From: Candidatus Pacebacteria bacterium GW2011_GWA1_46_10
GTDB taxonomy: Bacteria > Patescibacteriota > Microgenomatia > UBA1400 > PJMF01
Length of the DNA stretch: 64,000 bases
Assembly: GCA_001002135.1 (NCBI GenBank)
Contig: LCLP01000001.1
Span: forward strand, 8,417 to 72,416
Reading direction: 5' to 3'
Positions within the stretch are counted from its first letter, which is position 1; each line of letters opens with the position of its first letter. The notes under the pieces are model-generated. The model searched no databases, was not told the origin of the DNA, and saw nothing but the letters and a program-made list of their open reading frames with translations. Made by a program: the position numbers and the translations under genes. Below are positions 21,463 to 49,431 of this stretch, one piece after another.

Positions 21463-21482
21463 CTCCCAGGCTCTTTTTTCTC

Positions 21483-22220: not shown

Positions 22221-24556
22221 TGTTTTTGGAATCGCAGGGTTTTATCACCAGTGTTTCTTTGTTTTTTGCCAATCTTTTTTTATGGCTAGGGATGATTGGT
22301 GTCGCTCTGGTGCTTGGTTACCTGTTACTCCAATGGCTTAAGTATCGCAACCGCGAAGGGTATTCGCTAGATTTCGTGACACTGTTGGTACGCTTGCCGA
22401 AAGACAACGAAATTAAAGTTGACGCGGCCGAACAAATGTTTGCGGGGTTGTACGCCTTAAAACACCACGGCTTTTTCTCGTTTTTGAAGGCAGAGGAACT
22501 GATTAGTTTCGAAATTGTTGGTCTCAAAGAGGAGATTGCTTTCTATGTCAGTTGTCCAAGGAGAGTACGCGACTTGGTGGAAAAACAAATCCATGGTGCC
22601 TATCCTACCGCCGACATCAAAGAAACCGACGAGGTCAATATTTTCAGTGAAAAAGGCCGAGTGGCGTTTGCCTCACTGCGCCTTAAGCAGGCTAAATACT
22701 TGCCGGTTAAAACATATAAAGACTTGCCGACCGATGGTTTATCGCTGATCACGTCCGCTTTTTCCAAAATGGGCGACGGCGAAGGAGCGATTCTGCAAAT
22801 TCTGATTCACCCAGAGAGTCAAGGGTGGCAGCGCAAGGGCAGAAATTACATGAAGGAAGAGAAGAAACGTGAAGCCGACCCGCAAAAGGCTACCTATGGT
22901 CATGATCCCAAAGAAATGGAGGCTGTGACGACTAAGGTAGAAAAACCAGGCTTTCGAACCTCGATCAGAGTCGTGGTTTCCTCACCGCAAGTGGCAATGG
23001 CACAGTCGCACCTCAATAATATTGTGGGCGCTTTTTCGCAGTTTACTTCCGCGTATAACGAGTTTTGGCGCACGCGTTTCTATATCAAACATCTGTTTAT
23101 GGTTGATTTTATTTACCGCTACATGCCGCTTTTCGGCTGGCGGACATCGATTTTGAATACGGAAGAGTTGGCCACCATTTTTCACTTTCCCAACAAAACT
23201 GTTGAGACACACCATATCAAGTGGTTGATTGCCAAAAACGCACCGGCGCCCCACCAAGTTCCACAAGAAGGATTGTTCCTTGGTAAATCACTCTACCGAG
23301 GAGAGGTGCGCGAGGTGCACATGACTCTTAAAGACCGCCAACGCCATATGTACATTGTTGGGAAAACCGGCACTGGTAAATCAGAATTCTTGAAAGAAAT
23401 GGTCTTGCAGGATATTGCCAATGGTGAGGGGGTGTGTGCGGTGGATCCGCATGGCGAGTTTGTGGAAGAAGTGTTGCAGTTGATCCCACCGGAGCGCGCG
23501 GAGGATGTCATTTACTTTAACCCCTCTGACCTCACGCGGCCAATGGGGCTCAATATGATGGAGGCGGATACGGAAGAGCAAAAGCATTTTGTGGTCAGTT
23601 CAATTATTGGTTTGATGTACAAGCTGTATGATCCCCACCGCACCGGCATTATTGGGCCACGATTCGAGCACGCCATCCGGAATGCGATGTTGACCATTAT
23701 GTCCAAAGAAGGCTCGACATTTATCGAGCTGGTGCGGACCTTGACTGACCCCAAGTTTGTCGAGGAGATGCTGCCCTATGTCAAAGACCCGGTGGTGAAA
23801 CGATATTGGACCGATCAGATCGCCCAGACAAGCGATTTCCACAAGTCTGAAGTCTTGGACTACATTGTCTCCAAGTTTGGCCGCTTTGTAACCAACAAAA
23901 CCATGCGTAATATCATTGGTCAACCAAAGAGCGCCTTTAATTTCCGCAAAGCGATGGACGAGAAGAAGATTATTCTCTGTAACCTCTCCAAGGGTATCTT
24001 GGGTGAGGAAGACGCCAAGTTTCTTGGTTTGATCCTAGTACCAAAAGTCCTGACCGCGGCCATGAGTCGCCAGGATGTGCCGATGGATCAACGCACTGAC
24101 TTTTTCCTCTATGTCGACGAGTTTCAGAACTTTGCCACCGAGGATTTTGCCACTATCTTGTCAGAGGCCAGGAAATACAAGCTTAACCTAATTGTGGCTA
24201 ACCAGTTTATCGGCCAGATTGACGAAGAGGTCAAAAACGCGGTGTTTGGCAATGTTGGGACCATTATTTCTTTCCGAGTTGGTGTGACGGATGCCAATTT
24301 CCTTCAGCACGAGTTTACCCCAGTCTTCAACGAAACTGATCTAACCAACGTAGAGAAGTACCACGTTTACGTCAAGACGATCGTGAATAATGAGCCAATG
24401 CCTGCCTTCAGCATGTCGCTGGAGAAAGATATTGATGCCATCAAGGCCAAGATGAACCCCAAGTTGGCCGAGATGGTCAAGCAATTGTCCCGCTTAAAGT
24501 ACGGCAAGGACCGCGAGGTAGTGGAGGCAGAAATTCAGGTTCGGGCGCGGTTGTAA
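22220..24556 (+). CDS. type IV secretion system ATPase of the VirB4/VirD4 (TraC/TraG) P-loop superfamily, N-terminally membrane anchored
   Basis: Long N-terminal hydrophobic hairpin. Walker A 'VGKTGTGKSEFL', 'AVDPHGEF', Walker B 'FFLYVDEFQNFATEDFA', and a C-terminal 'GNVGTIISFRVG' region. 778 aa. Confidence 0.7.
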   Translation: MFLESQGFITSVSLFFANLFLWLGMIGVALVLGYLLLQWLKYRNREGYSLDFVTLLVRLPKDNEIKVDAAEQMFAGLYALKHHGFFSFLKAEELISFEIVGLKEEIAFYVSCPRRVRDLVEKQIHGAYPTADIKETDEVNIFSEKGRVAFASLRLKQAKYLPVKTYKDLPTDGLSLITSAFSKMGDGEGAILQILIHPESQGWQRKGRNYMKEEKKREADPQKATYGHDPKEMEAVTTKVEKPGFRTSIRVVVSSPQVAMAQSHLNNIVGAFSQFTSAYNEFWRTRFYIKHLFMVDFIYRYMPLFGWRTSILNTEELATIFHFPNKTVETHHIKWLIAKNAPAPHQVPQEGLFLGKSLYRGEVREVHMTLKDRQRHMYIVGKTGTGKSEFLKEMVLQDIANGEGVCAVDPHGEFVEEVLQLIPPERAEDVIYFNPSDLTRPMGLNMMEADTEEQKHFVVSSIIGLMYKLYDPHRTGIIGPRFEHAIRNAMLTIMSKEGSTFIELVRTLTDPKFVEEMLPYVKDPVVKRYWTDQIAQTSDFHKSEVLDYIVSKFGRFVTNKTMRNIIGQPKSAFNFRKAMDEKKIILCNLSKGILGEEDAKFLGLILVPKVLTAAMSRQDVPMDQRTDFFLYVDEFQNFATEDFATILSEARKYKLNLIVANQFIGQIDEEVKNAVFGNVGTIISFRVGVTDANFLQHEFTPVFNETDLTNVEKYHVYVKTIVNNEPMPAFSMSLEKDIDAIKAKMNPKLAEMVKQLSRLKYGKDREVVEAEIQVRARL

Positions 24557-27676: not shown

Positions 27677-27994
27677 TTACTTTCGCTCGTAACTCTCCAC
27701 TACTTGTTTGCAATACAGATATTGACCGTACTCAACCGCTTTTTGTTGGAATGACGGTTCGCTTTCATCAACTTGTACGCTCTCACCGAGCACTTTTTTG
27801 GTCTCTGTCCCGAGTTCTTTCGCTTTTTCGGCCAGGCCACCTAAACTCTCCCGCGCGGTTTGCTGAAGGTCTTGGACCGCTTCTTTTGGCAAGGAGGCAA
27901 CTTCTTCAGCCAGAGAAATGTTGTTGCCTTGAGCGTAGACGTAAACAGCAGTCGCAGCCCCAATGATAGCAATGAGCGCGATGATTTTTTTCAC
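27677..27994 (-). CDS. small secreted or anchored hypothetical protein
   Basis: Signal peptide 'MKKIIALIAIIGAATAVYVYAQG'. Confidence 0.4.
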   Translation of the reverse strand: MKKIIALIAIIGAATAVYVYAQGNNISLAEEVASLPKEAVQDLQQTARESLGGLAEKAKELGTETKKVLGESVQVDESEPSFQQKAVEYGQYLYCKQVVESYERK

Positions 27995-28053: not shown

Positions 28054-29271
28054 TTATTCGTAACGCAGCGCCTCAATCGGGGAAAGCCGTGAGGCTCGTC
28101 GCGCCGGCGCTACCCCAAAGATAATCCCGACCACGGCTGAAACACCAAAAGCCAGCAACACTGCGCCTACCGTCACTTGTGCCGGGAAAAAGGCTTGCAA
28201 ACCCAGGGAGCCAAGGTAGGCGAGCGCCAGGCCAATTAAGCCGCCCGTGACGGACAACAAAGCTGACTCGATCAGGAACTGAAACAGAATCTGATTTGGT
28301 GTGGTACCCAAAGCTTTGCGCAGACCAATCTCACGCGTTCGCTCGGTGACTGACACCAACATGATATTCATAATGCCAATGCCGCCAACCAGTAGTGAAA
28401 TAGCGGCAATGCCGCCCAAGCCGGCAGTTAAAACCCCCAGAATACTGGTAATGGTGTTGAGAATTTCGGTCTGGTCAAAGACGCTAAACTCATCATCGTC
28501 TAGTCTCTCTGACAAAACATCTTCGATGGCACCGATGGCTGTTTGAATCTGGTTTTGGTCTTTGATTTTGACCACAATTTCCAAAATAGTTTGACTGTCG
28601 TAGAGATCAAAACCGGTTTCCAGCGGGATGTAAATATAGGTATCAAAAGATAGTCCACCGAAGGTGCCGCCTTGCTTTTCAGCTACACCCACCACTTTAA
28701 AAGTCTGGGTGCCCAGTTTGATGTTTTTACCGATCGGATCGATCTTGCCAAATAATGTATCCGCAATATCCCAACCGAGGACGGCTACCCGTTCCTTCCC
28801 CTGATCTTCAGTTTTGCTGAAAAACCGCCCTTTAGCCGTCCGGATATTGAGCATTTCTTCGTACTGATACGTCGTGTTGATGACACTAATGTTTTCCGTT
28901 TCGCCGCGGTAGCTGGCGGTATCAGCCTGCGAATTAAAGGGTATAGCAAAAGCGACGTGCTCACGGATACGCTCGATATCAGCGACGTCGCCCAAGCGTA
29001 ACTTATTGTTGCCGATGGCATTGATTTGCGAATCTCGGTCAAAGCCACCGCCCTCGCCGAAAACGTCTCCCGGGAAAACAATCACGTTATTGGAGCCCAG
29101 TGACTCAAACTCCTCGGTAATATACGCCTGTAAACCAGTCCCAATCGAGTTTAGTAAAACAACTGATGAAACGCCGATAATGACCCCTAACATGGTCAAA
29201 AAAGCCCGGCCCTTATTGACGATGATAGCTTTAAGAGCGACCAAAAACGTATTTTTTAAATTCATGTTCAT
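28054..29271 (-). CDS. ABC transporter permease, MacB/FtsX family
   Basis: N-terminal TM, large extracytoplasmic domain, C-terminal FtsX-like four-helix bundle. Typical 405-aa MacB permease layout. 4-nt overlap with the ATPase gene. Confidence 0.8.
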   Translation of the reverse strand: MNMNLKNTFLVALKAIIVNKGRAFLTMLGVIIGVSSVVLLNSIGTGLQAYITEEFESLGSNNVIVFPGDVFGEGGGFDRDSQINAIGNNKLRLGDVADIERIREHVAFAIPFNSQADTASYRGETENISVINTTYQYEEMLNIRTAKGRFFSKTEDQGKERVAVLGWDIADTLFGKIDPIGKNIKLGTQTFKVVGVAEKQGGTFGGLSFDTYIYIPLETGFDLYDSQTILEIVVKIKDQNQIQTAIGAIEDVLSERLDDDEFSVFDQTEILNTITSILGVLTAGLGGIAAISLLVGGIGIMNIMLVSVTERTREIGLRKALGTTPNQILFQFLIESALLSVTGGLIGLALAYLGSLGLQAFFPAQVTVGAVLLAFGVSAVVGIIFGVAPARRASRLSPIEALRYE

Positions 29272-29993
29272 ATTTTCATTTTTCCGTCGACGATTTTGCC
29301 ATCAATCAGACTAATATGTTGCTTAGCAATGTCTGCGACATCGTGTTCATGGGTGACCATGATGATGGTGCGGCCCTCTTTACTCAGTTGTTGCAGGATT
29401 TTCCTTACTTCTTCGCCGCTTTTGGAATCCAAGTTGCCGGTTGGTTCATCGGCAAAGATGATGGAGGGGTTATTGACCAGCGCTCGGGCAATGGCCACTC
29501 GTTGTTGTTGACCGCCCGATAACTGTGATGGCGTGTTATGTAATCGATCACCCAAACCGATCTTTTCCAGCATCACTTTAGCGCGCTCCAGCCTGGTTTT
29601 CTCATCGATGCCGGCGTAAACCAAGGGGAGCGCCACGTTTTCTAAGGCCGAAGTTTTGGCCAGCAAATTGTAGTTTTGGAAGACAAAACCAACTTCGCTG
29701 TTACGCAAATGCGCTCGCTCGACTTCGTTGTATTTAGTGGTATTTTTGCCATTAATCAAAATATGGCCGCTGGACGGAGTGGCCAGAATGCTGGCAACTT
29801 GCAAAAACGTTGACTTACCCGATCCGGAGGGACCCATCACCGAGAGGAAGTCACCTTCACGGACCCTGAGCGACACGCCGTCTAAGGCTTTGATCGTTTG
29901 AGTGCCGACCTCATACACCTTGGAGACGTTTTGTAACTCTAAGATGATTTTCTTGGTTGAACTTGATTTTTTTGACCGTTTGCTTTGAGGCAT
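29268..29993 (-). CDS. ABC transporter ATP-binding protein (MacB/LolD type)
   Basis: Walker A 'GPSGSGKST', signature 'LSGGQQQRVAIARAL', Walker B 'IIFADEPTGNLD', H-loop 'VTHEH'. Confidence 0.9.
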   Translation of the reverse strand: MPQSKRSKKSSSTKKIILELQNVSKVYEVGTQTIKALDGVSLRVREGDFLSVMGPSGSGKSTFLQVASILATPSSGHILINGKNTTKYNEVERAHLRNSEVGFVFQNYNLLAKTSALENVALPLVYAGIDEKTRLERAKVMLEKIGLGDRLHNTPSQLSGGQQQRVAIARALVNNPSIIFADEPTGNLDSKSGEEVRKILQQLSKEGRTIIMVTHEHDVADIAKQHISLIDGKIVDGKMKI

Positions 29994-30002
29994 TACATTC
30001 GA

Positions 30003-31046
30003 TTATTCGGGCAACAGTATTTCGTCTGACTCTGATAAGCCGCTCAAGACTTCTACTTTTTCGTCCGTTTCCAGGCCAAGCGTGATTTCTCGCTCCTCGT
30101 ACTCTTGCGGGCCGGTTCGCACGTCAACATACGTTTTACTATCACGCTCACGAGTGGCAATCAGCGGAATGGTCAGTGCGTCGGCTTTTTCAGTCAGCTT
30201 GATATCGACATCGCCGTTCATGCCGAGTCGATATTTTTCCAAGCCACTGAGCGTCTCAATCGGCAGTTCGACGATAAACACAGTCCCGCTGGTATCAGCG
30301 GTACTCAGGTAAGAGATATAGTTAACCGAAGAGTTGATACTTTCGCCTGGATAAGCGTCCAGTTCAATGACGGCGGTTTGACTAAGTTGAACATCGGCAA
30401 TGTCTGCCTCGTCGACCAGCGCCCGGAAAACAAGCGTATCGGGATTAACGATCAGAAATTTATCGGTGGCGGCAAGAGTTACCCCACTGACGTTAGTGGG
30501 TGACTGAACTAAAGTACCATTGATCGGTGAAGACATGACGGTATTGGCTACCGCGATGGCCGCAATCTCTACGTCGAGCACGGTGTTACTGAGATCGAGT
30601 TGGTTTTTATCTACCGTCCGCTCCTCGGCTTTATCAATAGTGCGGTCCTCAATGTCGTCCAGTTGTTGATCCCAATCGAGTCGTTCCTTGGAGTAAAGGT
30701 TGAGGTTTTTTTCTTGAGTTTTGGCCAGGCTCGCGGCATCGATTTGGGCGATGGTTTGCCATTTTTTGACTTGGTCGCCTTCTTTGGCGCCTAAGTACAC
30801 GACTTTACCGCCGGCCAGAAAGTGCATCGAGGCTTTTTCTTTGGCGTCTACCGTGCCAGAAACTGCTAGGGTTTTAATCAGTGTTTCGCGAGTGGGTGAA
30901 ATGAAAGTGAGTTGTGCTTGTCGTTGAGAGCGTGCGTAGACGAATCGGCCGACGAGTAACAAGACTATCAGCACGCCAATCACCCACCACCGCCTAAGTT
31001 TCCAGATTTTTTTGAGCTTTTTGACCAAAAGTTTGACGAATTTCAT
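30003..31046 (-). CDS. efflux periplasmic adaptor (HlyD/MacA-like membrane fusion protein)
   Basis: N-terminal TM anchor, coiled-coil-rich middle, beta-barrel-like C-terminus. Operon position upstream of the MacB-like pair. Confidence 0.7.
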   Translation of the reverse strand: MKFVKLLVKKLKKIWKLRRWWVIGVLIVLLLVGRFVYARSQRQAQLTFISPTRETLIKTLAVSGTVDAKEKASMHFLAGGKVVYLGAKEGDQVKKWQTIAQIDAASLAKTQEKNLNLYSKERLDWDQQLDDIEDRTIDKAEERTVDKNQLDLSNTVLDVEIAAIAVANTVMSSPINGTLVQSPTNVSGVTLAATDKFLIVNPDTLVFRALVDEADIADVQLSQTAVIELDAYPGESINSSVNYISYLSTADTSGTVFIVELPIETLSGLEKYRLGMNGDVDIKLTEKADALTIPLIATRERDSKTYVDVRTGPQEYEEREITLGLETDEKVEVLSGLSESDEILLPE

Positions 31047-31055
31047 GAAAGCCTA

Positions 31056-31088
31056 TTTTAATCCAGGCAGAGTTTTTAATCCAGGCAG
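31056..31088. repeat. direct repeat 'TTTTAATCCAGGCAG' x2 (18-nt period) immediately 3' of tRNA-Ile
   Basis: Seen directly: ttttaatccaggcag ag ttttaatccaggcag. Confidence 0.6.
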
Positions 31089-31106
31089 TTTTTATCAGAA
31101 ACAGGG

Positions 31107-31180
31107 TGCGTGCGCTAGGACTCGAACCTAGAACCACCAAGGTATAAGCTTGGTGCTCTAACCAATTGAGCTACACACGC
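31107..31180 (-). tRNA. tRNA-Ile with anticodon UAU (reads AUA); CCA not encoded
   Basis: 74-nt cloverleaf with acceptor GCGUGUG/CGCACGC, D-arm GCUC-AAUUGGUUA-GAGC, anticodon stem CCAAG/CUUGG with loop CUUAUAC, T-arm CUAGG-UUCGAGU-CCUAG, discriminator A. Confidence 0.8.
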
Positions 31181-31265
31181 AGGTCAATTAAAAGTGAATA
31201 GTTAAAAGTTTATAGAGTCTATTAACTATTAACTATGGACTTATTGCTTGCCTTGGAATTATAGC

Positions 31266-32021
31266 CTACAGGAGCAAGAGGAGGAGGGCGCCGACGCCAA
31301 GCGTGGCGATGCCAACCTGTAAATACCGCAACCAATCTGCTGGACCGGCAACTGGGAGTTCCTCTGGGATTTCCGGTTGAGTAGTGGGTTGAACAAGAGT
31401 TGGTCGGGCGCCACTAGTAGCTGCTGTTTCTTCGCCGGTTTGTTGGTTGATGGTGACATTAACACTGGCAGTGCTGGTGGAGTTAGCGCTGACGTTGACG
31501 TTCACGTCATTATCTTCTGGAGTGGGAGTAGGAGTTGGTTCTTCTGTTGGTGTTGGTGTAGGAGTGGGCTCTTGACAACAACTAGCGATGGACGGATTGG
31601 CGACACAAGCGGCCTCAAACTCTGGTTGAGCGCAATAAGTGTTGCCGTTATCAGCGGTGATACAAGTTAAACCATCCAGACAGTCGGCGTCAGTGTCGCA
31701 GGGACCGTAGCCACAAGCGGCCTGGGTTGTCACCTCGGAAACAGTAAAAGTCAGAGTGCAATTGGACGTTTGTTGAATGGCGGCCTCCGGGCGCGATTCA
31801 GGCACGTTCGGCGCCACTGGTCCTTGGGTGAGAAATTGTTTTTGCGAGATCAGCACACCAATAAAACCAAGGAAGAAAAACCCAGCTAAAGCCAGCACGC
31901 CGCTGATCAATTTCCAAGGAGAGATTGAGTTATTGGCGGGAGTCTGAGCCTTAACCGTTTTTACTATGGTTGGCTCTTTTTTCCTTGGAGCGGCTGGTGG
32001 GTTTTGATAAGTGTTCTCCAT
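31266..32021 (-). CDS. cell-surface protein: TM, Cys-rich domain, Pro-Thr linker, LPXTG-like (LPVAG) C-terminal sorting signal; paralog A
   Basis: N-terminal TM anchor, about 10 Cys, '(E)PTPTPTPTEEPTPTPTPE' linker, C-terminal 'ELPVAGPADWLRYLQVGIATLGVGALLLLLL'. Confidence 0.6.
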   Translation of the reverse strand: MENTYQNPPAAPRKKEPTIVKTVKAQTPANNSISPWKLISGVLALAGFFFLGFIGVLISQKQFLTQGPVAPNVPESRPEAAIQQTSNCTLTFTVSEVTTQAACGYGPCDTDADCLDGLTCITADNGNTYCAQPEFEAACVANPSIASCCQEPTPTPTPTEEPTPTPTPEDNDVNVNVSANSTSTASVNVTINQQTGEETAATSGARPTLVQPTTQPEIPEELPVAGPADWLRYLQVGIATLGVGALLLLLL

Positions 32022-32030
32022 TAGTTTTGA

Positions 32031-32897
32031 TTAGTTTTGGGTACAAACAGTTGGTGTATAACTTTCCCAGTTACACTCAGCGGTGGTGCCGCCATCTGGA
32101 CAGACGGCGCACTGGACAGCAAAGTCACCAGTTGAAGGAATGGTGTAACTGATATTGCTACTGCTAGTGGTGTATTGGAGTGGTTCGTTGTGGTACTCGC
32201 TACCGCACGGCCCCCAAATTCTGAATTGATAGTGATAACCGTCAGGCAGCGCGATGTTAGCCGAACAAGTGAAGCCGACTGTGTCACCTGGAGCTAGGCC
32301 GGCATCGTCGTTACCAGAGAGAACGATGGGATTGCCATCATTGGGGTCATACATCCCGATGTCGTAACACATCGGTCCACCTGGCAGCGTGGGGGTAGGG
32401 GTGTGGGTAGGAGTGGGGGTCGGAGTATGAGAAGGAGTTGGCGTTGGTATACGGGTGGGAGTGGGTGTTCGAGTCGGTCTTGGAGTGGGGGTAGGAGTGG
32501 GTGTTGGGAGAGTGTCCCCTGGGAAACAACCATCGCTACTACCGCAAACGTAGCCCGGCACGCAACAGGTCATCCCGAAGCCTTGCCAGTTAGTGCAGTA
32601 ACTTCTTCCTTGAGCCTCGCAAGAGGCTTTAATAGTGTCGTCACACTCAGTGCCGGTACAGGCGTCTCCACCAAGACAGTGACAGTTTTCTGGCTGACCT
32701 CCACAAGCGTTTGGGTCACCGATCGTACATTCGTAGTTTTCATCATAAGCTGGACCAGCGGCTTGTTGGCGCAAGTCTTGACTGATTCGGGAAAGGTAAA
32801 GCCCTACTGCTGCGCCAATCAGGAGCATCAGTAATAAAGCTCCCCCGAGGAGGAGTGAGCGGGTTCGTTGGGCAGTTGAGGGAGTAGGGTTGGCCAC
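32031..32897 (-). CDS. cell-surface protein: TM, Cys-rich domain, long Pro-Thr linker, Cys-containing beta-rich C-terminal domain; paralog B (no LPXTG)
   Basis: Shares the TM plus 'SQDLRQQAAGP' juxtamembrane segment and Cys-rich module with paralogs A and C. 'TPTPTPTPRPTRTPTPTRIPTPTPSHTPTPTPTHTPTPT' linker. Confidence 0.6.
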   Translation of the reverse strand: MANPTPSTAQRTRSLLLGGALLLMLLIGAAVGLYLSRISQDLRQQAAGPAYDENYECTIGDPNACGGQPENCHCLGGDACTGTECDDTIKASCEAQGRSYCTNWQGFGMTCCVPGYVCGSSDGCFPGDTLPTPTPTPTPRPTRTPTPTRIPTPTPSHTPTPTPTHTPTPTLPGGPMCYDIGMYDPNDGNPIVLSGNDDAGLAPGDTVGFTCSANIALPDGYHYQFRIWGPCGSEYHNEPLQYTTSSSNISYTIPSTGDFAVQCAVCPDGGTTAECNWESYTPTVCTQN

Positions 32898-33044
32898 TCG
32901 GTTGCTTTCAGCTATTGGTGCTGAGGAATAGCATACAGAGGTTTTCTGGCTAGGGTCAAGCAGACTGATCTCAGTAGCAGTTTTGGTTTGGAAAAGAAAT
33001 GAGCGCGGTTTTGTCGCCCAGCTTGTCGGTTAGTGACTGTCAAA

Positions 33045-33863
33045 CTAAAGGAAGAGCAGCAGTAGCGCGCCGGCGCCAAGGACACCCAGGCCGATCTGCA
33101 GGTATTTCAGCCAATCTTCCGGACCGGTTTGGGGCAGTTCACTAGGGAGAGTGGGTTGACCGCCGGTAGTGGTACTAGTGCCGCCGGTACTAGTTCCTTC
33201 ATTGAGGGTGACGTTGGCCTCAGCATTGCTGGACGAGTCAGCAGTAGCAATTATGTTAGTGTCGTCGCCACCACCACCGACACCATCACCTGGTGTGGGG
33301 GTTGGTTCCACTGTAGGTGTTGGTTCTTCTGTGGGTGTCGGAGTAGGAACATTACTCGGCGTTGGGGTTGGAGTGAGGGTTGGTGTATGAGTGGGGGTAG
33401 GAGTTGGTGCGGCGTCCTCAGTTGTTCGGCAAACACAGTCGCCATCCGACTGTGCCCGGCAAGTGCCGTAGGGCGCGTTGTTACCACAGCGATCGCCGGG
33501 ATCTTTGCCCTGACATTGAGCGGCAGAGCCTGGGCCGCAACCGCCGCTGGGTATGGGAGTGGGAGTGGTGATCGGGTGTTCATACACTGATGCCTGTTGA
33601 CGTAAATCCTGGTTGAGTTTAATGAGATATAAACCGACGCCGCTGCCAATGACCAGCAGCAGTAAAAGCGCCCCGGCTAAGATATATTTACCAGACAGTT
33701 TGCCTTTCTTTTGCGGTGGCGGGGTGGAATCAGCTGTTTGACCTGCTGGAGTCGGTTGATCATTGACCGCCGGAGTTTGTCCGGGATCAGTTGGCAGATC
33801 ATCCGGCAGATTTGGTGGCAACGGTGAAACTGGTGAAGGTGAAGAGCCAACGACGTTGATCAT
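33045..33863 (-). CDS. cell-surface protein: TM, Cys-rich domain, Pro-Thr linker, LPQTG sorting signal; paralog C
   Basis: Long Pro-rich N-terminal tail, TM, 'NQDLRQQAS', Cys-rich module, 'PTPTPTHTPTLTPTPTPSNVPTPTPTEEPTPTVEPTPTPG' linker, C-terminal 'LPQTGPEDWLKYLQIGLGVLGAGALLLLFL'. Confidence 0.65.
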   Translation of the reverse strand: MINVVGSSPSPVSPLPPNLPDDLPTDPGQTPAVNDQPTPAGQTADSTPPPQKKGKLSGKYILAGALLLLLVIGSGVGLYLIKLNQDLRQQASVYEHPITTPTPIPSGGCGPGSAAQCQGKDPGDRCGNNAPYGTCRAQSDGDCVCRTTEDAAPTPTPTHTPTLTPTPTPSNVPTPTPTEEPTPTVEPTPTPGDGVGGGGDDTNIIATADSSSNAEANVTLNEGTSTGGTSTTTGGQPTLPSELPQTGPEDWLKYLQIGLGVLGAGALLLLFL

Positions 33864-34099: not shown

Positions 34100-34774
34100 A
34101 TGCAACTAAACTTATTAAAATTTAAAGTTTTGTCAAATTTTGCTTTTCTGCCTTGGGTAAAACGGAGCTTTATTTTTTTACGTCTCGCCAGTTGTCCGTT
34201 TATGGAGTTGATAACTTACCTACCAAAGAAAGGCAAGTTACTTGATGTTGGCACTGGGTTCGGATTATTGCCTTTATTACTTAAACAGCACAACTCCCAA
34301 TTGCAAATTATTGGTATTGATCCAGATGCCGAGCGCATTAAGCTGGCTCGGCAAGCCAATCAAAATCTTAGTAATTTTCAGTTTCAAGTAGGCACAGTAC
34401 TAGATCTAGACTTGCGACAAACTTTTACAGTCGCAACCTTGGTGGATGTTTTGTACTTACTTCCCCAAAGCGAAAAAATAAAAACCATTCAAGCAGTGTA
34501 TCGATTACTTGAACCAAATAGTTTGTTAGTCATCAAAATCAATGACAAATCTTTTAGTCTCAGCTATTTTTTCACTTGGTTGCAAGAAAAAATGACGGTA
34601 CAGATTTTTAAGGAAACCACTACCAATTTCCCTGGTTTATATTTTGAAAATGCGGCGGAAGTGAGCGAACTGTTGGAAAACAATGGTTTCCAAGTACAAA
34701 AAAGGGTGAAACTTAAAACTCCGTTCCCCTTTTTCCACCCGCATTGGTTAGTGGTTGCACAAAAGAAAAACTAA
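34100..34774 (+). CDS. class I SAM-dependent methyltransferase
   Basis: Motif I 'LLDVGTGFGLLPLLL', motif post-I 'IIGIDPD', motif II-like 'FTVATLVDVLYLL'. Confidence 0.75.
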   Translation: MQLNLLKFKVLSNFAFLPWVKRSFIFLRLASCPFMELITYLPKKGKLLDVGTGFGLLPLLLKQHNSQLQIIGIDPDAERIKLARQANQNLSNFQFQVGTVLDLDLRQTFTVATLVDVLYLLPQSEKIKTIQAVYRLLEPNSLLVIKINDKSFSLSYFFTWLQEKMTVQIFKETTTNFPGLYFENAAEVSELLENNGFQVQKRVKLKTPFPFFHPHWLVVAQKKN

Positions 34775-34785
34775 TAACATGAGTT

Positions 34786-36339
34786 TTACCGAACATTCAT
34801 TACCAAAATCGGCGTTTGGAAAGAACCGATGGTTTTTTCCAAAATGAAGGTCTCGCCGTAATAGTTTCGATTAATTTTTTCCTCAAAACTAGTAAAGCAG
34901 TCATTGATGGAAAAATTGCTGTTTACCTGATGACAAATTACGTACAGAGTAACCAAGTTAGTTTTCGATCGGCGGGTAGCTTTGCTGGTTTCAGGATCAA
35001 TATCCACCAGATATTCTCCAGTCAATTTTTCCAAATTGTACCAGTAATAAGAGGTTTCCCAACCATAAGGGTCGTAGTGACTGATGGCTAACAGGTCAAT
35101 ATCAGTAAGAGGCAATTGTTTTTGATGGGCGTCATTTAAGATTCCTGTGGCTGCTTGACGAGCAGCGGTGATAGTGGATGCGCCCGTCAGTCTCATACTA
35201 GTCAAATTAGTTTTAAGTAAAAATGCTGATAAAAAAATAATTGCTATGACAAAAACTGTGTTTTTTAATTGACCCAATAATGCACTCAACCAGAGTAATA
35301 AAAAGGGAGTGACAACCAATAAATAAGCGCGCGAAAATATGGGAAGTGTTTCCTGAATTAAAATAGCTATCAAAACGGCAGGCAGGAAGCTGAAAAGAAA
35401 TAGTAAAATTATTCCCTTGCTATGAGCTTTTAGGGTTTTGTTGAAATTTGCCAATACTGCGGCACTGATAAAAAAAGCGAAGAAAATGATGTCGTTTTTA
35501 GTTTCTGAAGATGGGAAATAAAGAAACACTTGCTTGAGGCTCAGAGTTAATCGTTCACCTAATTTCGAAGTAGCTATGGCTGTCTGTGACTGCTGATAAT
35601 ACTGGCCGATTATTTGAAATCTGGCCCAGTCATATTTCACTTCGACTAATAAAATGGGCAAATAAATTGCCACTGCCCCTAAAGTGAAGATAATTATTGC
35701 TCTGATTGGTTTAGCGAGATTTTTTAATTCACGAACAAAAAGAATAGCCTTGAGGGGTATGAGTAGGTACATGGGTGGATAAAACTGGGTAGCTAGTAAA
35801 CTGATGAGAACGGCACTGATAAAAAAATTTTCTCTTTTACCTTGCTTGAAAAGGGCGAATAAATAGAGAGCAATTGTGTCAAAAAAAATGGCAATAACAG
35901 GTTGTGAGGCCCAAGTGGAAGTGTAGAGCATGGTGGGCAAAAAAAGGGCTAAGACGAGGACAGCCATGCCAGTTTTTTGATTGAAGAAGATGCAAGCTAT
36001 CCGATAAAGAAAATAAGCTTGTAATAAATTAATGACAGTAAAAATCAAAATATATCCTTCTGGAGTTTGTAGTCCAATGAGATAAATTAAAGTTAGAAAA
36101 TAGTATCCCAATGGCGAGTTATGTAAGAGGTATTTATCGTCAGTATCTAAAGCACTAATTTCTCCCAACTCTGGAAATTTACCATATTTAATCAGGCGTT
36201 CCGCCGTCAGTAGTTGCACTCCCTCATCTCCGGCAATTGTTTCGAAATGGCTCCAATTGATTAATCTAAAAACAGCGCCGATTAAAAAAAACAGCCCGAT
36301 AATTATTAAAGTTTTGTTTTTTAAAATAATTTTTACCAT
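34786..36339 (-). CDS. GT-C fold glycosyltransferase, PMT/ArnT-like (GT39/GT83 family, PMT_2-type)
   Basis: About 12 TM segments. A conserved acidic 'AGDEG' motif in the first extracytoplasmic loop (the DE motif of the PMT/ArnT family). 517 aa. Confidence 0.6.
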   Translation of the reverse strand: MVKIILKNKTLIIIGLFFLIGAVFRLINWSHFETIAGDEGVQLLTAERLIKYGKFPELGEISALDTDDKYLLHNSPLGYYFLTLIYLIGLQTPEGYILIFTVINLLQAYFLYRIACIFFNQKTGMAVLVLALFLPTMLYTSTWASQPVIAIFFDTIALYLFALFKQGKRENFFISAVLISLLATQFYPPMYLLIPLKAILFVRELKNLAKPIRAIIIFTLGAVAIYLPILLVEVKYDWARFQIIGQYYQQSQTAIATSKLGERLTLSLKQVFLYFPSSETKNDIIFFAFFISAAVLANFNKTLKAHSKGIILLFLFSFLPAVLIAILIQETLPIFSRAYLLVVTPFLLLWLSALLGQLKNTVFVIAIIFLSAFLLKTNLTSMRLTGASTITAARQAATGILNDAHQKQLPLTDIDLLAISHYDPYGWETSYYWYNLEKLTGEYLVDIDPETSKATRRSKTNLVTLYVICHQVNSNFSINDCFTSFEEKINRNYYGETFILEKTIGSFQTPILVMNVR

Positions 36340-36363
36340 TTAGAGGATTCTCGCTCACTAATT

Positions 36364-37473
36364 TTATTGCTGTTTGATTAAATTAAGCACACTCAAACAG
36401 TCTTCTAAATTACCAGCATAGCAGTCATAACGATATTGATATTGAACAATGCTAAGTAAAATAATGATGGCCCAAAAAACCATTGGTTTTTTTATAAATA
36501 CTTGCAGTAGGGCCAAAAAAAGCAAGTAAAAAACTGGCAAAATCGGCAGGATATGTCTGGGCAAGAGGTAACCAAGTTTAGTTATCATCAGTAGAGTTGG
36601 TAACGATACAGCACCCAAAACCAATGCTAGGGTGATCACTTCTTTAATGGTTTTGATAAGTTTCTTACTAAACATTAACATTACAACACTAGAACCAGAA
36701 ATGAGATACCGTCCCTGACGGACAGTGATATAAGTAATGGCGTCCCACAGACTTTGCCATGGTTGCTCGTCATAAAATCTTTCTGGTGAGTAAACCCACC
36801 AACCGGCAATCGATGCGTGTATGTATAACCAGACTACAGTCATAACAGGTAGCGGTGAAATATAACGTATTAACCAAGAGAGTTTGTTTGTGATGCCTTT
36901 TTCCAAAAATAAATAAACTCCGGCTGCTAGGGTAATAAAAAGTGCGTTGTCAACTCTGAATAAAATAGCCAAGATAGCAATTAAAGTGAAGCTAAAATAT
37001 TTTTTCTTGATTAAAAAAATGACACTTAAAAAACGCAGAGCAGCCCCAACGATCTCAAAATAAACGAGATGAGTTTGAGCTATAAAAAGCGGATTGGTGA
37101 GAAATAAAACTACCAAAGCCTGGCCAATTTTTTTACTGGCTATACTTTTGCCCAAAAAATACATCACCACCAGGAAAAACAGCGATAAAAATAAACTTAA
37201 TAAATGAATAAAAAAGAGATGATTAGTGGTTAGTTTGATAATAAAAGCGATTATCAACGGCAATAAAAAAGTATGAGGATAATCGCTGCCACCAAAGTAT
37301 GAAAAAAGATTGCCAGTTTGAGCAATAGCATAACCTGCAGGGACCAGAAACCAGGCAGTGTCCCAGTAGAAAGGGAGAGAAAAGCTTTTTTTAGTTGACA
37401 AGAGTAAAACAATTGTTACCCCCAACCAAAAAAGCATATCCTGCCAACTAACTTTTTTAGTTGTTTTAGTCAT
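36364..37473 (-). CDS. polytopic membrane protein, probable second GT-C-like glycosyltransferase (start uncertain; ORF open to 37506)
   Basis: 10 or more TM segments, 'WDTAWF' in the first loop. Operon partner of the PMT/ArnT-like gene and the GT2-YdjC fusion. Confidence 0.4.
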   Translation of the reverse strand: MTKTTKKVSWQDMLFWLGVTIVLLLSTKKSFSLPFYWDTAWFLVPAGYAIAQTGNLFSYFGGSDYPHTFLLPLIIAFIIKLTTNHLFFIHLLSLFLSLFFLVVMYFLGKSIASKKIGQALVVLFLTNPLFIAQTHLVYFEIVGAALRFLSVIFLIKKKYFSFTLIAILAILFRVDNALFITLAAGVYLFLEKGITNKLSWLIRYISPLPVMTVVWLYIHASIAGWWVYSPERFYDEQPWQSLWDAITYITVRQGRYLISGSSVVMLMFSKKLIKTIKEVITLALVLGAVSLPTLLMITKLGYLLPRHILPILPVFYLLFLALLQVFIKKPMVFWAIIILLSIVQYQYRYDCYAGNLEDCLSVLNLIKQQ

Positions 37474-38845
37474 ATAAACTTCCCGGATGAGTAATTTGAA
37501 CATCAAAGAATAATTTAGATTTTTGTTTGGGATGTATAAGCAACAGTTGTTTCAAGTTCAGTAGTGTTTGTAGCAACAAAAAAGGTAAATACTTTTGTGG
37601 CCGCAAACGAAGGTAGTTGGTAGTAGAACTTGTACCCCTAATTTGGACTTGATGCTGAGCCGCCATTTCTTCCACTATTTGCTTGATTGGAAAAAAGGTG
37701 TGAAGGTGTTGCTCTGAATCTAGGTAATTGACAGCAAAGCCCAATTTTTTTAAATATTTGAACTGGTTAGTAAATTCTAGCTTTACTTCGGTCAGCTTTA
37801 CTTGTCCAAAAAAAAGCTTAGTTAATAAAACTGGCAAAGAAAAAAAGTTCCCTTGCTGGTCTATTAGGGAACTGACCAATTTTTGTATAGTGATAGGCTT
37901 TCCTCTGGTTAAATTGAGATGAAGACCGATCTTGACTGATCGTTGGTAAGCAAGCAATTTTCGACTATCTATTGTGGAAACAAGATTTACTAAAACGGAC
38001 ACACCAGTCAGATTTTTAGCGGCCGCTTGATCAATTACAGCCTCATTAACAACTGACGATAAACCATAATCATCAGCAATAACTGGTAGACGGCTTAATT
38101 GATTGTTTGAATTATTAGATAAATAACCGCCGAGTTTAAAGGTGATTATTCTCCATAAATCAATGAGTGTGAGTCGAACTCTTCGCCAAGAAGTATAACG
38201 AGTTGGTCGCAATTCCCTCACAACAACAGGAACCTCCTGGAGACTTTGTTTTTGTTGGCAAAGCTTTAACAGTAATTCTGTATCCAGCAGCTCATGTTTG
38301 ACGGAGCACGCTCTTAAAGTTTTTATCAGAGCTGGAGTACTACGAAATGCTTTTAAACCATGAGTGTCTGTACCGGGGTATGAAAATAACATCTTGAGCG
38401 ATTGATGAAAAATTTTGGTTTGAATTTGGCGAAGTAATCCACGGTGGTCTTGGCTTTCACGTAATGTTTTTGAGCCTACCACGATTTCGTATTTATCGAG
38501 CAATTTTTTTGCCTGGGAAATGAAATTCGAATTGAAAAAATCAATATTTAAGACATAGATTTTTTGGCCTAAAGCGCTCAAAATCCCGTGTTTAAGAGCT
38601 TGGCCATAAGAAGCCTGACTAATGCGCAAATTACGTAAACCAGGATATTTTTTAGCGAGCCTTTGCATAGTTGCCCAGGTTTGATCAGTGCTGCCGTTTT
38701 CGATTAGTAACACTTCAAATTGAGTAAAATAGTTTTTTTCTAATAACTGGTAAAAAAGCTTTAATTGAGGGGAGAGATAAGAAGCTTCATTATAAACAGG
38801 AAATATAAAGCTATGTCGAACTGAGGAATGGACATTGTTACTCAT
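37466..38845 (-). CDS. bifunctional fusion: N-terminal family 2 glycosyltransferase, C-terminal YdjC/ChbG-like carbohydrate deacetylase
   Basis: GT2 'SFIFPVYNEASYL...LLIENGSTDQT'. YdjC-type 'SRLPVIADDYGLSSVVNEAVIDQAAAKNLTGVSVLVNLVST' starting around residue 235. Confidence 0.7.
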   Translation of the reverse strand: MSNNVHSSVRHSFIFPVYNEASYLSPQLKLFYQLLEKNYFTQFEVLLIENGSTDQTWATMQRLAKKYPGLRNLRISQASYGQALKHGILSALGQKIYVLNIDFFNSNFISQAKKLLDKYEIVVGSKTLRESQDHRGLLRQIQTKIFHQSLKMLFSYPGTDTHGLKAFRSTPALIKTLRACSVKHELLDTELLLKLCQQKQSLQEVPVVVRELRPTRYTSWRRVRLTLIDLWRIITFKLGGYLSNNSNNQLSRLPVIADDYGLSSVVNEAVIDQAAAKNLTGVSVLVNLVSTIDSRKLLAYQRSVKIGLHLNLTRGKPITIQKLVSSLIDQQGNFFSLPVLLTKLFFGQVKLTEVKLEFTNQFKYLKKLGFAVNYLDSEQHLHTFFPIKQIVEEMAAQHQVQIRGTSSTTNYLRLRPQKYLPFLLLQTLLNLKQLLLIHPKQKSKLFFDVQITHPGSLYD

Positions 38846-38906
38846 GAATGAGTGTTATCATAGTTTTTGAAACTATCAAGGTCAATTAAATAGAATCTGG
38901 GAGGAA

Positions 38907-41444
38907 ATGAGTTTTTTTTTACCAACTAAGCATTTAATTAATCAGACGAGGCGTCAAAAGCAAACTCAACTACATCAGTTGGAAAACAAGCTTAAAAAAA
39001 GCCGCTCATTAAATGAGTATCTGCGCGCTCTTGATAGGTGGGGCCAATTAAATACATTAGTTTTTGCCAAAATTTATAAAGAAATTTTTTCTAAAAAAGA
39101 GAAACTCCATAGCTCACTTTGTGTTTCAGGAAGTTATGCGAGCGGCAGCTTAACATGCAGGTCAGATCTTGACGTTGTGTTATTTTACGATTCGCGTTTT
39201 TTGCCAAAGCGTGATGTAGAGAGAAAAATACAAAGTTTTTTATCAGTAGTTCAGCCGCTGGTGGGCAAAGCTGATTATATTATTTTTGACACAAATCAAG
39301 CTTCTAGTTCAGATTTTTTTGACACTGTAAACCCATTTTTACTAAACTTTTTCTTGATACACTCTTTTATTTCGGGCAATCAACAGCTTTATAGAGAAAC
39401 AGCTAACAACCTAGCTAAAAATGAAAAAATTACCCAGCAACTGGTGGAGTTTATTTATGTTCACAAACAGCTTCCCAAGTTCGGTTTTACTGAAAATACC
39501 CAGTTTCACGTTAAAATTTCTCCGGGAGGGCTTTTAACGCTTACTTTAGCTTTTCATTTTTTGCGGTCATCAAAGTTTTTTTCTCAAGATTTAAGCTTGA
39601 TTGAAGTTCTCAGAAATCTCAATCAACTTAAGGAATTTTCTAGAAAAGAGTGCTTAGCAGTGATTGATTCTTTTAAATTATTGCGTTTTGTAAAAAGTGA
39701 GTTAGAAATTATCAGCAATTCTGATCAGGTCCCGGTTAAAGAAGAGCTCCTATTTAAAATAAGCCAAAGAAATAATTGGATTCCCGACGGAAAGATTTTA
39801 TACACCGCAATCAACAGAGCCAGAAGAACTATTCTTAATTTTGATGAAAAAATTCAATCAATGATTTTGGATAAGCTCGGAATTGATAAAAAAAAGCTTC
39901 TCCAATTTTATAAAAATCAAAAAAACTGGGAAAAGCTCATAAGCGATACTGAAAAACCTTTTTACAACACCATCTTTGCTTGGACAACCAATAATCCTGT
40001 AGTGAGCGAGGGGCTTTTTTACCAAACAGAAAAAAAATCGACCCCTTTTTTGCTGGGGTTGATGCAAAACCCGATCACCCCTGGCAAGATACTTAATAAG
40101 GTGGAAATTCTTAGTAGAGATACTCAATACCTTAAAGTAAGAAATCGCTTTTTGCTTTATCACCCGTTTCTGATGAAAAAAACACTATTGCGAATGGTGA
40201 CAAAAGATTGGAGTGCATTTCTGTCATTTGTCCACACATTGCGGAATAAGATTTTTCAACAAGTTTTGTGGCTTCTTTCAAAATTAAAATTCTTCGGTTT
40301 AAGAAAGGTTTTTTATGCGGCAAAGGACTTCACTCTTTTTCTTAAAAAGATACATTTATCAAATGACATAGTGTTTTTGTCAAAAAGCAAGAAGGAGGAA
40401 ATACTATCGAGTTTTGTAAAAGAGCTATCTCGTCTAGAGATGGTTGAAGCGGTTTACAACATAGGAAGGAAGAAATATGTTTCGGGAATATCGGATTTAG
40501 ATTTAGTGGTGATAGTCAAAAAGAGTGGTAGTTATTCTTCGCTCAAAAAGGTTTTTTACCAATATCGAGCTAGTTTTAAGTCACAGTCCTATTTGTTTGA
40601 GCATTTTCCTTTTGTTGTCACTCGCAGCCTCTTTGTCGCACTCACTCGTTTTGGCATAATTCCACATCTCAACCACGATCTAACCGAACGTTTGCAGTGT
40701 TTATACGCCAAAAAAGATTTTAGTCAGCCTGAAATAACTGTGAGCGGACAACAGTACAGGCTCTCTTTGTTGGAGCATTATTTTCTTTCTATTTGGTCAA
40801 ACAATCTTACCTTGAGGTATCAGTCAGCAGTTTCTCTCAGGCTCATGATTAAAAGGGTAGAAAAGCTCTTTTTGAATTTTTGTCAATTTTGGCAGTTTCA
40901 AAATCCACCCCCGATCCTTTCGGAAAATGGTTTTTATCAGGAAATGGAGTTAAAAATTTCCAAGACCATTAAAAGTATTCTTAAAACAATATCTAACAAA
41001 GAGATACTTTCGTTTTCCCAGCATGCTGCTCTCTTTCAAATATGGCAGGAGATTGACCAGGCATTTGAAAAGGAAATCAATAACTACTTGCAAGAAACTT
41101 TTCCTGGTAATAGTTTATTATTACCACTTGTGTCTGGTCGCAATCAGTTTGCGGACACCCTTTTTCTGCATATACCAAATCGACAGTTATTTTTTTGGAG
41201 ACTTTTGAAATACTGGTTAGGGAAACAAAAGATTTTGTTAATGAATCATCGATATTTGCTTTATTTCAATACTGTTTTTCAAGATAACCAACCTTTAGGC
41301 AGCAAAAGGTTGAGTTCACTCATTAAAGAAAGGAGAAAGACTAGAATGGCTTGGTACTCTTTTTTAGAAGAAGGGGATTTAATTACATGGAGTAATAGAC
41401 CTTATTTTTATGAGATTTATCAAAAGTATAGGGAAGTTTCTTAA
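38907..41444 (+). CDS. large protein with two GlnE/GlnD-type nucleotidyltransferase motifs (double-NTase, GlnE-like architecture); function unknown
   Basis: Motif 1 'LCVSGSYASGSLTCRSDLDVVLFYD' (around residue 70) and motif 2 'VYNIGRKKYVSGISDLDLVVIV' (around residue 520) both fit the G-x-G...S-D-[IL]-D-[LV] Pol-beta NTase signature as seen in GlnE/GlnD. The two lie about 450 aa apart, as in GlnE halves. Confidence 0.45.
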   Translation: MSFFLPTKHLINQTRRQKQTQLHQLENKLKKSRSLNEYLRALDRWGQLNTLVFAKIYKEIFSKKEKLHSSLCVSGSYASGSLTCRSDLDVVLFYDSRFLPKRDVERKIQSFLSVVQPLVGKADYIIFDTNQASSSDFFDTVNPFLLNFFLIHSFISGNQQLYRETANNLAKNEKITQQLVEFIYVHKQLPKFGFTENTQFHVKISPGGLLTLTLAFHFLRSSKFFSQDLSLIEVLRNLNQLKEFSRKECLAVIDSFKLLRFVKSELEIISNSDQVPVKEELLFKISQRNNWIPDGKILYTAINRARRTILNFDEKIQSMILDKLGIDKKKLLQFYKNQKNWEKLISDTEKPFYNTIFAWTTNNPVVSEGLFYQTEKKSTPFLLGLMQNPITPGKILNKVEILSRDTQYLKVRNRFLLYHPFLMKKTLLRMVTKDWSAFLSFVHTLRNKIFQQVLWLLSKLKFFGLRKVFYAAKDFTLFLKKIHLSNDIVFLSKSKKEEILSSFVKELSRLEMVEAVYNIGRKKYVSGISDLDLVVIVKKSGSYSSLKKVFYQYRASFKSQSYLFEHFPFVVTRSLFVALTRFGIIPHLNHDLTERLQCLYAKKDFSQPEITVSGQQYRLSLLEHYFLSIWSNNLTLRYQSAVSLRLMIKRVEKLFLNFCQFWQFQNPPPILSENGFYQEMELKISKTIKSILKTISNKEILSFSQHAALFQIWQEIDQAFEKEINNYLQETFPGNSLLLPLVSGRNQFADTLFLHIPNRQLFFWRLLKYWLGKQKILLMNHRYLLYFNTVFQDNQPLGSKRLSSLIKERRKTRMAWYSFLEEGDLITWSNRPYFYEIYQKYREVS

Positions 41445-41452
41445 TTTTAAAT

Positions 41453-49424: not shown

Positions 49425-49431
49425 ACTTTCT

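Follow-up and report, generated by a model that had tools for sequence, protein, structure and literature searches.

A previously undescribed cassette of three surface-protein genes, designated C, B, and A, is located on the minus strand of a 64-kb stretch of the genome of Candidatus Pacebacteria bacterium GW2011_GWA1_46_10 (the window, to which all positions given below refer; the source contig comprises 573,566 bp). The reading that we favor, with moderate confidence, is that these genes represent the Pacebacteria version of a cassette found in the core genome across Microgenomates, with A and C being sorted by a sortase and B acting as a partner. The C-terminal signal carried by A and C belongs to a known type of sorting signal, and is best interpreted as a lineage-wide variant of the LPXTG type that lacks the charged tail. 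The cassette bears on the building of the envelope and the attachment to partners in Microgenomates, a large uncultured group. It is embedded in the conserved core genome of this group and has no Pfam or NCBIfam model, and two of its members are misnamed in GenBank.

The three neighboring open reading frames (ORFs) all encode an N-terminal tail followed by a transmembrane (TM) helix and, further along the chain, a Pro-Thr-rich (PT) linker, in agreement with the original prediction made from the DNA; all elements listed in this paragraph lie on the minus strand. Gene C (33045..33863) specifies 272 residues, and its GenBank entry (KKU18192.1) is identical to the ORF as called here. The chain starts with a 59-residue cytoplasmic tail ('MINVVGS…') and continues through a type I N-terminal anchor (33591..33686), consisting of the TM helix YILAGALLLLLVIGSGVGLYLI and the juxtamembrane KLNQDLRQQA, a 6-Cys module CGPGSAAQCQGKDPGDRCGNNAPYGTCRAQSDGDCVC (33429..33539), the PT linker (33291..33410), and a segment rich in Ser, Thr, and Asn, ending with the putative sorting signal ELPQTGPEDWLKYLQIGLGVLGAGALLLLFL-COOH (33048..33140). 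Gene B (32031..32897) specifies 288 residues from a GTG start; KKU18191.1, a call of 265 residues in the same 90% cluster, probably starts too late, cutting into the TM helix. A short tail leads in B to a type I anchor (TM helix and SRISQDLRQQA, 32760..32858), which is followed by a 12-Cys module (32526..32729), a 43-residue PT linker (32382..32510), and a C-terminal immunoglobulin (Ig)-like β-sandwich of 116 residues with seven cysteines (32034..32381), with no C-terminal signal. Gene A (31266..32021), the start of which is separated by 9 nt from the stop codon of B, specifies 251 residues, identical to KKU18190.1. Its tail is followed by a type II N-terminal module (31740..31916) that comprises a TM helix, SQKQFLTQGPVAPNVPESRPEA, and the conserved strand SNCTLTFTV with Cys88, predicted to be unpaired, and then by an 8-Cys module (31575..31715), a PT linker, a Ser/Thr/Asn-rich segment, and the C-terminal signal ELPVAGPADWLRYLQVGIATLGVGALLLLLL-COOH (31269..31361), an LPxAG variant.

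The product names in GenBank, 'Chitinase' for B and 'RNA polymerase sigma factor, sigma-70 family' for C, are artifacts of low-complexity matches, neither a chitinase nor a sigma-70 domain being present in B and C in the Pfam and NCBIfam scans. Weak matches of A, B, or C to MAP17, DNER_C, GltJ, SslE, and internalin in the same databases were likewise discarded as low-complexity noise. The DNA of the whole region is identical in three independent assemblies; in GCA_003524865.1, in which the DNA is identical, B is called at 107 residues and A has no call at all. The PT linkers had been thought to be encoded by near-perfect DNA repeats, a description that does not hold, as Tandem Repeats Finder gives a single period-12 array with 66% matches, located in the linker of B.

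Comparison of the three proteins with each other does not bear out the idea that they are paralogs built around one shared Cys-rich module. The BLASTP match between A and C is confined to the last 76 residues (E = 8e-17), B and C are aligned with E of 1.4 and have nothing in common beyond the anchor motif and PT stretch, and E for A and B is 5. These alignments show A, B, and C to be mosaics rather than whole-length paralogs; they are three different components, each of them individually conserved. Their Cys-rich modules belong to three unrelated types that are shuffled among homologs. The module of C recurs in homologs P0002, P0005, P0006, and P0012, that of B is also found in P0019, P0022, and L004_10891, and P0017, P0022, P0029, and L005_11919 contain between one and three copies of the module of A. 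Five other candidates (P0024, P0026, P0027, P0030, and P0031), matched through the PT linkers only, were rejected as homologs. The number of cysteines, expected to be 8–14, is 9 in A, 19 in B, and 6 in C, and the QDLRQQA segment ascribed to all three is found only in B and C, its place in A being taken by SQKQFLTQGPVAPNVPESRPEA and the C.L.F.V strand.

In the AlphaFold2 (AF2) models, the TM helix and QDLRQQA form a single continuous helix in both C (residues 58–93) and B (residues 9–47). The 6-Cys module of C is predicted with a local confidence score (pLDDT) of ~90 and the C-terminal helix spans residues 249–271; the predicted template modeling score (pTM) of the whole model is 0.26, and a fold search with C gave no match in the PDB (all E ≥ 2.7). 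The C-terminal part of B was correctly described as a Cys-containing β domain that replaces the signal. It is modeled with seven strands at pLDDT of ~80 (range 70–87), from a thin alignment (a profile search with this domain gave two matches only), and the Foldseek matches are to Ig and fibronectin type III (FnIII) folds, suggesting a generic Ig/FnIII-like sandwich. The match of this domain to PKD (PF00801) is below threshold (E = 0.3, 11.6 bits vs. a cut-off of 23.5). The domain is conserved in B-type proteins of 19 loci. No isopeptide pilin domain (CnaA or CnaB) was matched in A, B, or C in Pfam or NCBIfam; DUF11 or RrgB-type domains are present in distant A-type orthologs.

Related loci were collected via homologs of C, via the signal in GTDB genomes (loci named Pacebacteria, Woesebacteria, and 'Paceibacterota'), and via the signal in metagenomes of the Joint Genome Institute (JGI). 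The cassette part of these loci consists of a gene with a type I anchor and a signal, a B-type gene (type I anchor and terminal Ig-like Cys domain, no signal), an A-type gene (type II module and signal), and another gene with a type I anchor and a signal. This (C)-B-A-(C′) order is kept in more than 30 loci, with the B-type and A-type genes adjacent or overlapping, and an ortholog of C is the opening gene at the Pacebacteria loci. The identity of the Pacebacteria C orthologs is 69–88% in the signal, 50–73% in the anchor region, and 23–46% in the middle of the protein. The gene of tRNA-Ile(UAU), placed next to the cassette by the original prediction and located at 31104–31181 on the minus strand, is the landmark that separates the cassette from a pump operon. 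A tRNA-Ile with the anticodon UAU is rare in bacteria. It is found in the same place in more than 30 Microgenomates loci, sharing its strand with the cassette in Pacebacteria but lying on the other strand in nearly all remaining loci, and all related loci with a sufficient flank have the cassette next to this tRNA.

Two classes of N-termini are present among the signal-bearing proteins. Type I, found in C and B, often starts with a 'MIN…' tail and includes a basic cluster, a TM helix ending with GGGxGxYL, and then QDxRQQA. Type II, found in A, has a TM helix ending with GVLIAQRQ, followed by PVAPNAPESxPxA and then, 5–12 residues on (most commonly 8), by a Cys within a C-x-L-x-F-x-V strand; the combination of APNAPxSxPxA with a Cys at this distance downstream is present in 52 of the 53 type II representatives. 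The N-terminal tails are 13–59 residues long, the TM helix continues into the helical conserved motif, and no AxA-type cleavage site was seen near the end of the TM helix on reading the sequence.

The C-terminal signal was described by a 44-position profile (covering the last ~45 residues) and scored against 1.84 billion representative proteins clustered at 50%. At least 205 representative proteins match at E ≤ 1e-3, and 89 do so at E ≤ 1e-10; the match reaches the last residue in nearly every case, and the carriers are 30–1504 residues long. The same profile gave only eight short fragments in a set of 5.8 billion proteins. The signature is searchable and likely outlines the surface proteome of the group, with at least 205 protein clusters. 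Its consensus reads QPxLPxELPQTGPEDWxNWLKAGLxTLGxGAxLLLLL. The signals of A (ELPVAGPADW…) and C (ELPQTGPEDW…) are homologous, and each is followed by a Gly/Leu-rich hydrophobic end without basic residues, as had been noted from the DNA. The composition of the motif and of the tail was evaluated for the 147 listed signal proteins of sufficient length. LPxTG is present in 75 of them, LPxSG in 46, and LPxAG in four, with none of these variants in the remaining 22. Poor conservation of the motif among homologs, together with a genome devoid of sortase, had been named beforehand as the result that would suggest a plain C-terminal TM anchor; LPx[T/S/A]G is found in 125 of the 147. The hydrophobic segment that follows the motif extends for ~19 residues up to the last residue, with Lys or Arg placed directly ahead of the helix in 137 proteins. 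A sortase-like signal without a basic tail on surface or envelope proteins is therefore real and lineage-wide, lysine, arginine, and histidine being missing from the last 14 residues in 146 of the 147 proteins, as well as in A and C.

Of the two LPXTG-like ends, that of C has LPQTG and passes the TIGR01167 (LPXTG_anchor) cut-off with 17.2 vs. 15.9 bits; that of A has the variant LPVAG, remains below the threshold, and shows no match to this family at E ≤ 1. In scans of 94 signal proteins, TIGR01167 is absent from the listed 25 of the 31 NCBIfam families that were matched, and the 25 commonest families of Pfam and NCBIfam include none specific to the signal or to either N-terminal module. The domains that accompany the signal in these 94 proteins, DUF11 (26–30), the RrgB-type isopeptide fimbrial domain (20), bMG10 (15), and DUF7927 (6), are typical of sortase substrates. 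Solitary genes with a type I anchor and a signal also occur outside the cassette, at L015:9281-10132 and L016:9089-10111, so that the signal is not confined to it; L015 shares a contig with the cassette locus L010 and adjoins tRNA-Ser, and L016 is on another contig of the assembly that contains L009.

The cassette signal resembles that of the LPXTG proteins of Gram-positive bacteria in having a C-terminal LPx[T/S]G and a hydrophobic stretch at the very end, and in being carried by DUF11 and isopeptide-pilin proteins in a lineage that is monoderm and reported to possess a sortase. It differs from it in the lack of a positive tail, in the nearly invariant post-motif segment (GPEDW-x2-YL-x-x-GLGxLGxGALLLLFL), and in that Pro is not obligatory; in addition, the N-terminus of the cassette proteins appears to be a long-tailed signal anchor with conserved juxtamembrane motifs rather than a cleavable signal peptide. 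According to Méheust et al. 2019 (PMC6744442), one sortase family, fam000526, is 'near ubiquitous in Microgenomates', and a sortase is encoded by a closed Microgenomates genome (PMC7143001). No report connecting LPXTG with these taxa was found in the literature searched.

A mechanism consistent with these features can be outlined. The proteins would enter the membrane via an uncleaved N-terminal signal anchor, of type I (TM helix and QDxRQQA) in C and B and of type II (TM helix, QKQ..APNAPESxPxA, and the Cys strand) in A. The small Cys-rich modules would fold on the outside through disulfides, with the PT linkers serving as extended, possibly glycosylated spacers across the wall. The signal of A and C, composed of LPx[T/S/A]G, GP(E/A)DW, Lys, and a Gly-zipper hydrophobic helix with no cytoplasmic tail, would most likely be cut by a Microgenomates sortase that joins A and C to the cell wall, whereas B, lacking the signal, would display its distal Ig-like domain, probably being bound to A via the single unpaired Cys of each protein. 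The N-terminal anchors look uncleavable, so that a protein processed in this way would bridge the membrane and the wall, and a role in adhesion or as an envelope scaffold may be envisaged for such an arrangement.

Several observations weigh against this reading. No sortase was found in the window by a TLxTC-type motif search, by phmmer, or by Pfam on 40 ORFs, nor in 53 related loci (710 kb, partly redundant) by the TLxTC motif or by phmmer, the latter applied to 1311 ORFs with two class A sortases, SrtA of S. aureus and of S. pyogenes, as queries. Housekeeping sortases are usually not linked to their substrates, and a missing sortase near these loci is for that reason weak counter-evidence; the presumed presence of the enzyme in this particular genome is taken from the literature. 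The 22 proteins that lack LPx[T/S/A]G (among them VVVPTESGPADW, ELVKAGPADW, and VEYVTGPEDW) have kept the downstream part, so that the best-conserved part of the signal is the very portion that a sortase would discard. The basic tail typical of LPXTG signals is missing, as described above. For the biology of sortases, these two properties constitute a puzzle, namely how such a signal would function without a charged tail and why conservation is highest in the portion presumed to be discarded. The long N-terminal tails (up to 59 residues) and the helical nature of the juxtamembrane motifs speak against cleavage of a signal peptide, and with an uncleaved anchor the N-terminus would keep the product of a sortase attached to the membrane. 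Lastly, the link between A and B is read from cysteine parity alone.

The absence of a tail, the Lys on the outer side, the near-invariance of the part to be discarded, the replaceable Pro, and anchors that do not look cleavable keep alive an alternative in which A and C are permanent membrane proteins with two anchors, processed by no sortase, the C-terminal glycine-zipper TM helix staying in the membrane. The C-terminal helix would then pack on a similarly patterned N-terminal TM helix of type I, belonging either to the same protein or to B, and the variable ectodomain would be a loop tethered at both ends. We regard this as a genuine possibility, albeit not the one that we expect to be correct. 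It would account for the conservation of the segment past the putative cleavage site, for the 15% of signal proteins without LPx[T/S/A]G, for the missing basic tail together with Lys or Arg on the outer side of the helix, and for the lack of a linked sortase gene in all 53 loci. Moreover, the N-terminal TM helix (…LLLLLVIGSGVGLYL, running from inside to outside) and the C-terminal one (YLQIGLGVLGAGALLLLFL, running from outside to inside) are mirror images of each other, both being Gly-rich in the outer half and Leu-rich in the inner half. However, LPx[T/S/A]G, retained by 85% of the signal proteins, would be needless in a plain anchor, the carriers of the signal have classic sortase-substrate domains, and sortase is reported to be nearly ubiquitous in Microgenomates. 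The N-terminal TM helix of A-type proteins also differs, being devoid of the GxGxG pattern, and the AF2 model of C, with its low pTM, provides no usable contact prediction.

Support for a covalent partnership of A and B, as assumed in the sortase-based reading, comes from the parity of cysteines counted downstream of the juxtamembrane motif. The number of extracellular cysteines is odd in all 53 type II (A-type) representatives, with values between 7 and 37 (binomial p = 2e-16, without correction for relatedness). It is even in 46 of the 60 type I proteins with a signal. Within the cassettes, odd numbers are found in 20 of 20 A-type and in 22 of 26 B-type proteins. In the proteins described here, A has Cys88 and an 8-Cys module, and B has 12 and 7 cysteines in its module and Ig-like domain, respectively. 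Since the modules hold even numbers of cysteines, A keeps one spare, the fixed Cys of the C-x-L-x-F-x-V strand, and the Ig-like domain of B likewise would retain one. The simplest reading of these sequences is that one disulfide may join A and B, the products of two coupled genes, and the strictness of the odd-Cys rule makes a covalent A–B complex a testable prediction. Disulfide machinery of the MdbA-like/VKOR type is enriched in the candidate phyla radiation (CPR) (PMC6744442).

We can speculate further that the cassette gives rise to a hitherto undescribed surface structure specific to Microgenomates, in which an A–B disulfide heterodimer is combined with a new class of sorting signal and in which the neighboring MacB-type machine may help; such an elaborate arrangement is put forward tentatively and is rather unlikely to hold in full. 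In this version, the Cys of the C-x-L-x-F-x-V strand of A would be linked to the spare Cys of the Ig-like domain of B, possibly with strand complementation in addition, and the post-motif helix would either be recognized by a CPR-specific sortase or another enzyme or pair with the type I N-terminal helix.

The machine in question is encoded on the other side of the tRNA by a conserved block (28054..31046, minus strand) that has the features of a MacB-type tripartite ATP-binding cassette (ABC) system, as judged by its Pfam matches. The block consists of a HlyD-type membrane fusion protein (MFP; 30003-31046, HlyD_D23, 6e-12), an ABC ATPase (29268-29993, ABC_tran, 7e-34), and a MacB_PCD/FtsX permease (28054-29271, MacB_PCD, 1e-44; FtsX, 3e-20). 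These three genes come next after the cassette in about 30 loci. A small TM protein with the invariant C-terminal YGxYxYCKQVVxxYE, encoded on the minus strand at 27677..27994 and belonging to no Pfam family, is the fourth gene, behind MacB, in ~27 loci. The order after the cassette is thus tRNA-Ile(UAU), HlyD-type MFP, ABC ATPase, MacB_PCD/FtsX permease, and the small TM protein. The MacB orthologs at the cassette loci are only 55–77% identical to the copy in the window, which indicates that the arrangement is old. The collinear block extends further, to rpsA and tRNA-Ala(UGC) upstream and to a DUF87/TrwB-like ATPase downstream.

In this neighborhood, the adjacent machine could be proposed to take the cassette proteins as clients and to extract, release, or assemble them by ATP-driven mechanotransmission, the more so as the operon with its small fourth protein stands behind the cassette in so many loci with divergent MacB sequences. 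LolCDE and Aat-type systems, which handle membrane-tethered proteins, belong to the MacB family. Nevertheless, the intervening tRNA, which is on the opposite strand in most lineages, implies separate transcription units, and the collinearity of the whole region (rpsA, tRNA-Ala, DUF87/TrwB ATPase) means that the adjacency may reflect general synteny. Genes with the signal are also present elsewhere in the genome without a pump (L015 and L016). We consider a client relationship to be improbable.

Among other known systems, PEP-CTERM/exosortase, PGF-CTERM/archaeosortase, and GlyGly-CTERM/rhombosortase are similar to the cassette signal in combining a short motif with a C-terminal TM helix, and in being restricted to lineages, present on many unrelated proteins, and highly stereotyped within a lineage. 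Their signals differ in ending with a basic cluster and in their motifs, and no candidates for an exosortase, archaeosortase, or rhombosortase were seen near any cassette locus. By analogy with the last of these systems, the C-terminal helix could be a substrate of an intramembrane protease, with sorting of the rhombosortase type and not by a sortase. The outer half of the helix is indeed Gly-rich and helix-destabilizing (GLGxLGxG), with small residues ahead of it, features that are typical of rhomboid substrates, and 15% of the signal proteins do without the LP motif. Yet neither a rhomboid nor another candidate enzyme was seen in any flank, the known GlyGly-CTERM signals carry a basic cluster that is absent here, and the conserved LPx[T/S]G would be left without explanation, making this mechanism very unlikely.

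By way of analogy only, the signals for eukaryotic glycosylphosphatidylinositol (GPI) anchors also combine small residues around the predicted point of cleavage with a short spacer of polar character and a hydrophobic stretch that extends to the final residue, leaving no cytoplasmic tail; they belong, however, to another domain of life and another enzyme, and lipid remodeling is unsupported here. The PT-linker secreted proteins of Actinobacteria, which are O-mannosylated by Pmt, resemble the cassette proteins in having Pro/Thr linkers between disulfide-rich or β-sandwich modules. A PMT_2-like glycosyltransferase of the GT-C type is encoded next door (34786-36339; 21.6 bits, below the cut-off) and is also adjacent in L014, and a PDB sequence search with this neighbor gave no match. 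In contrast to the actinobacterial proteins, the cassette proteins showed neither a catalytic module nor a known carbohydrate-binding one, and the GT-C neighbor is not kept at most cassette loci. Based on the sub-threshold PMT_2-like neighbor as the only evidence, the PT linkers are possibly glycosylated. The Pam pili of CPR bacteria (bioRxiv 10.64898/2026.03.03.709456) are similar in being CPR-specific Ig-like surface structures, some with C-terminal TM anchors, that are present in Microgenomatia. The Pam-pilus operon was nevertheless rejected as a relative of the cassette, on account of its ordinary signal peptides, its ATP synthase/CorB gene context, and the lack of an LPXTG-like signal.

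The idea of an adhesin island that was acquired recently and inserted at tRNA-Ile, suggested originally by the position of the genes beside the tRNA and favored by their GC content (0.49–0.53, slightly above the surroundings, an excess caused by the ACN and CCN codons of the PT linkers), is refuted by synteny, as the cassette, the tRNA, and the pump genes recur together in more than 30 divergent loci, with no integrase among the neighbors (Pfam on the window ORFs) and no tRNA-derived repeats flanking the genes. The direct repeat cited in its support turned out to be an 18-nt tandem (CTGCCTGGATTAAAAAC-like, 2.3 copies) that occupies 31056-31094, in the spacer separating the tRNA from the start codon of the MFP, and not a pair that flanks the genes; it is private to this genome, six related loci having no such repeat in the corresponding spacer. 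The truly variable part is instead an envelope-glycan cluster of low GC content (0.34-0.45) at 34100-53875, between the cassette and rpsA/tRNA-Ala. It contains genes for a methyltransferase, the weak PMT_2-like GT-C, GT2 and YdjC, NTP_transf_2, ABC2/ABC, Wzy_C, and Bac_transf. Since a homolog of rpsA lies less than 10 kb from the cassette in other lineages, it is this cluster at 34–54 kb, and not the cassette, that looks like an inserted or variable segment.

Rfam, promoter, and terminator scans of the region 30.5–34.5 kb detected the tRNA only, other signals being at chance level. An Rfam match to 'Plastid-ycf2' at 31106-31180 on the plus strand, antisense to the tRNA (41 bits vs. a gathering score of 65.7), is most likely an artifact of the tRNA-like structure. 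On the far side of the pump operon, the DUF87/TrwB-type ATPase with DUF8128 (22220-24556, plus strand) is syntenic with the cassette region in distant loci, as is the region 20995-22220, which encodes a DUF192 protein and an unannotated ORF of 245 residues. In other lineages, one of two further conserved genes, neither of them present in the window, is located between the cassette and the tRNA. One encodes a protein of ~175 residues with '…MQPHSMCA…' (L028:10163-10687, L032:8133-8660, and L038:10133-10657), and the other a TM protein of ~235 residues with '…TIPT.FDP…C.(E/Q)Y…SP.G.Y.AFEDL' (L035:6980-7687, L048:3802-4488, L053:5725-6495, and L043:2092-2817).

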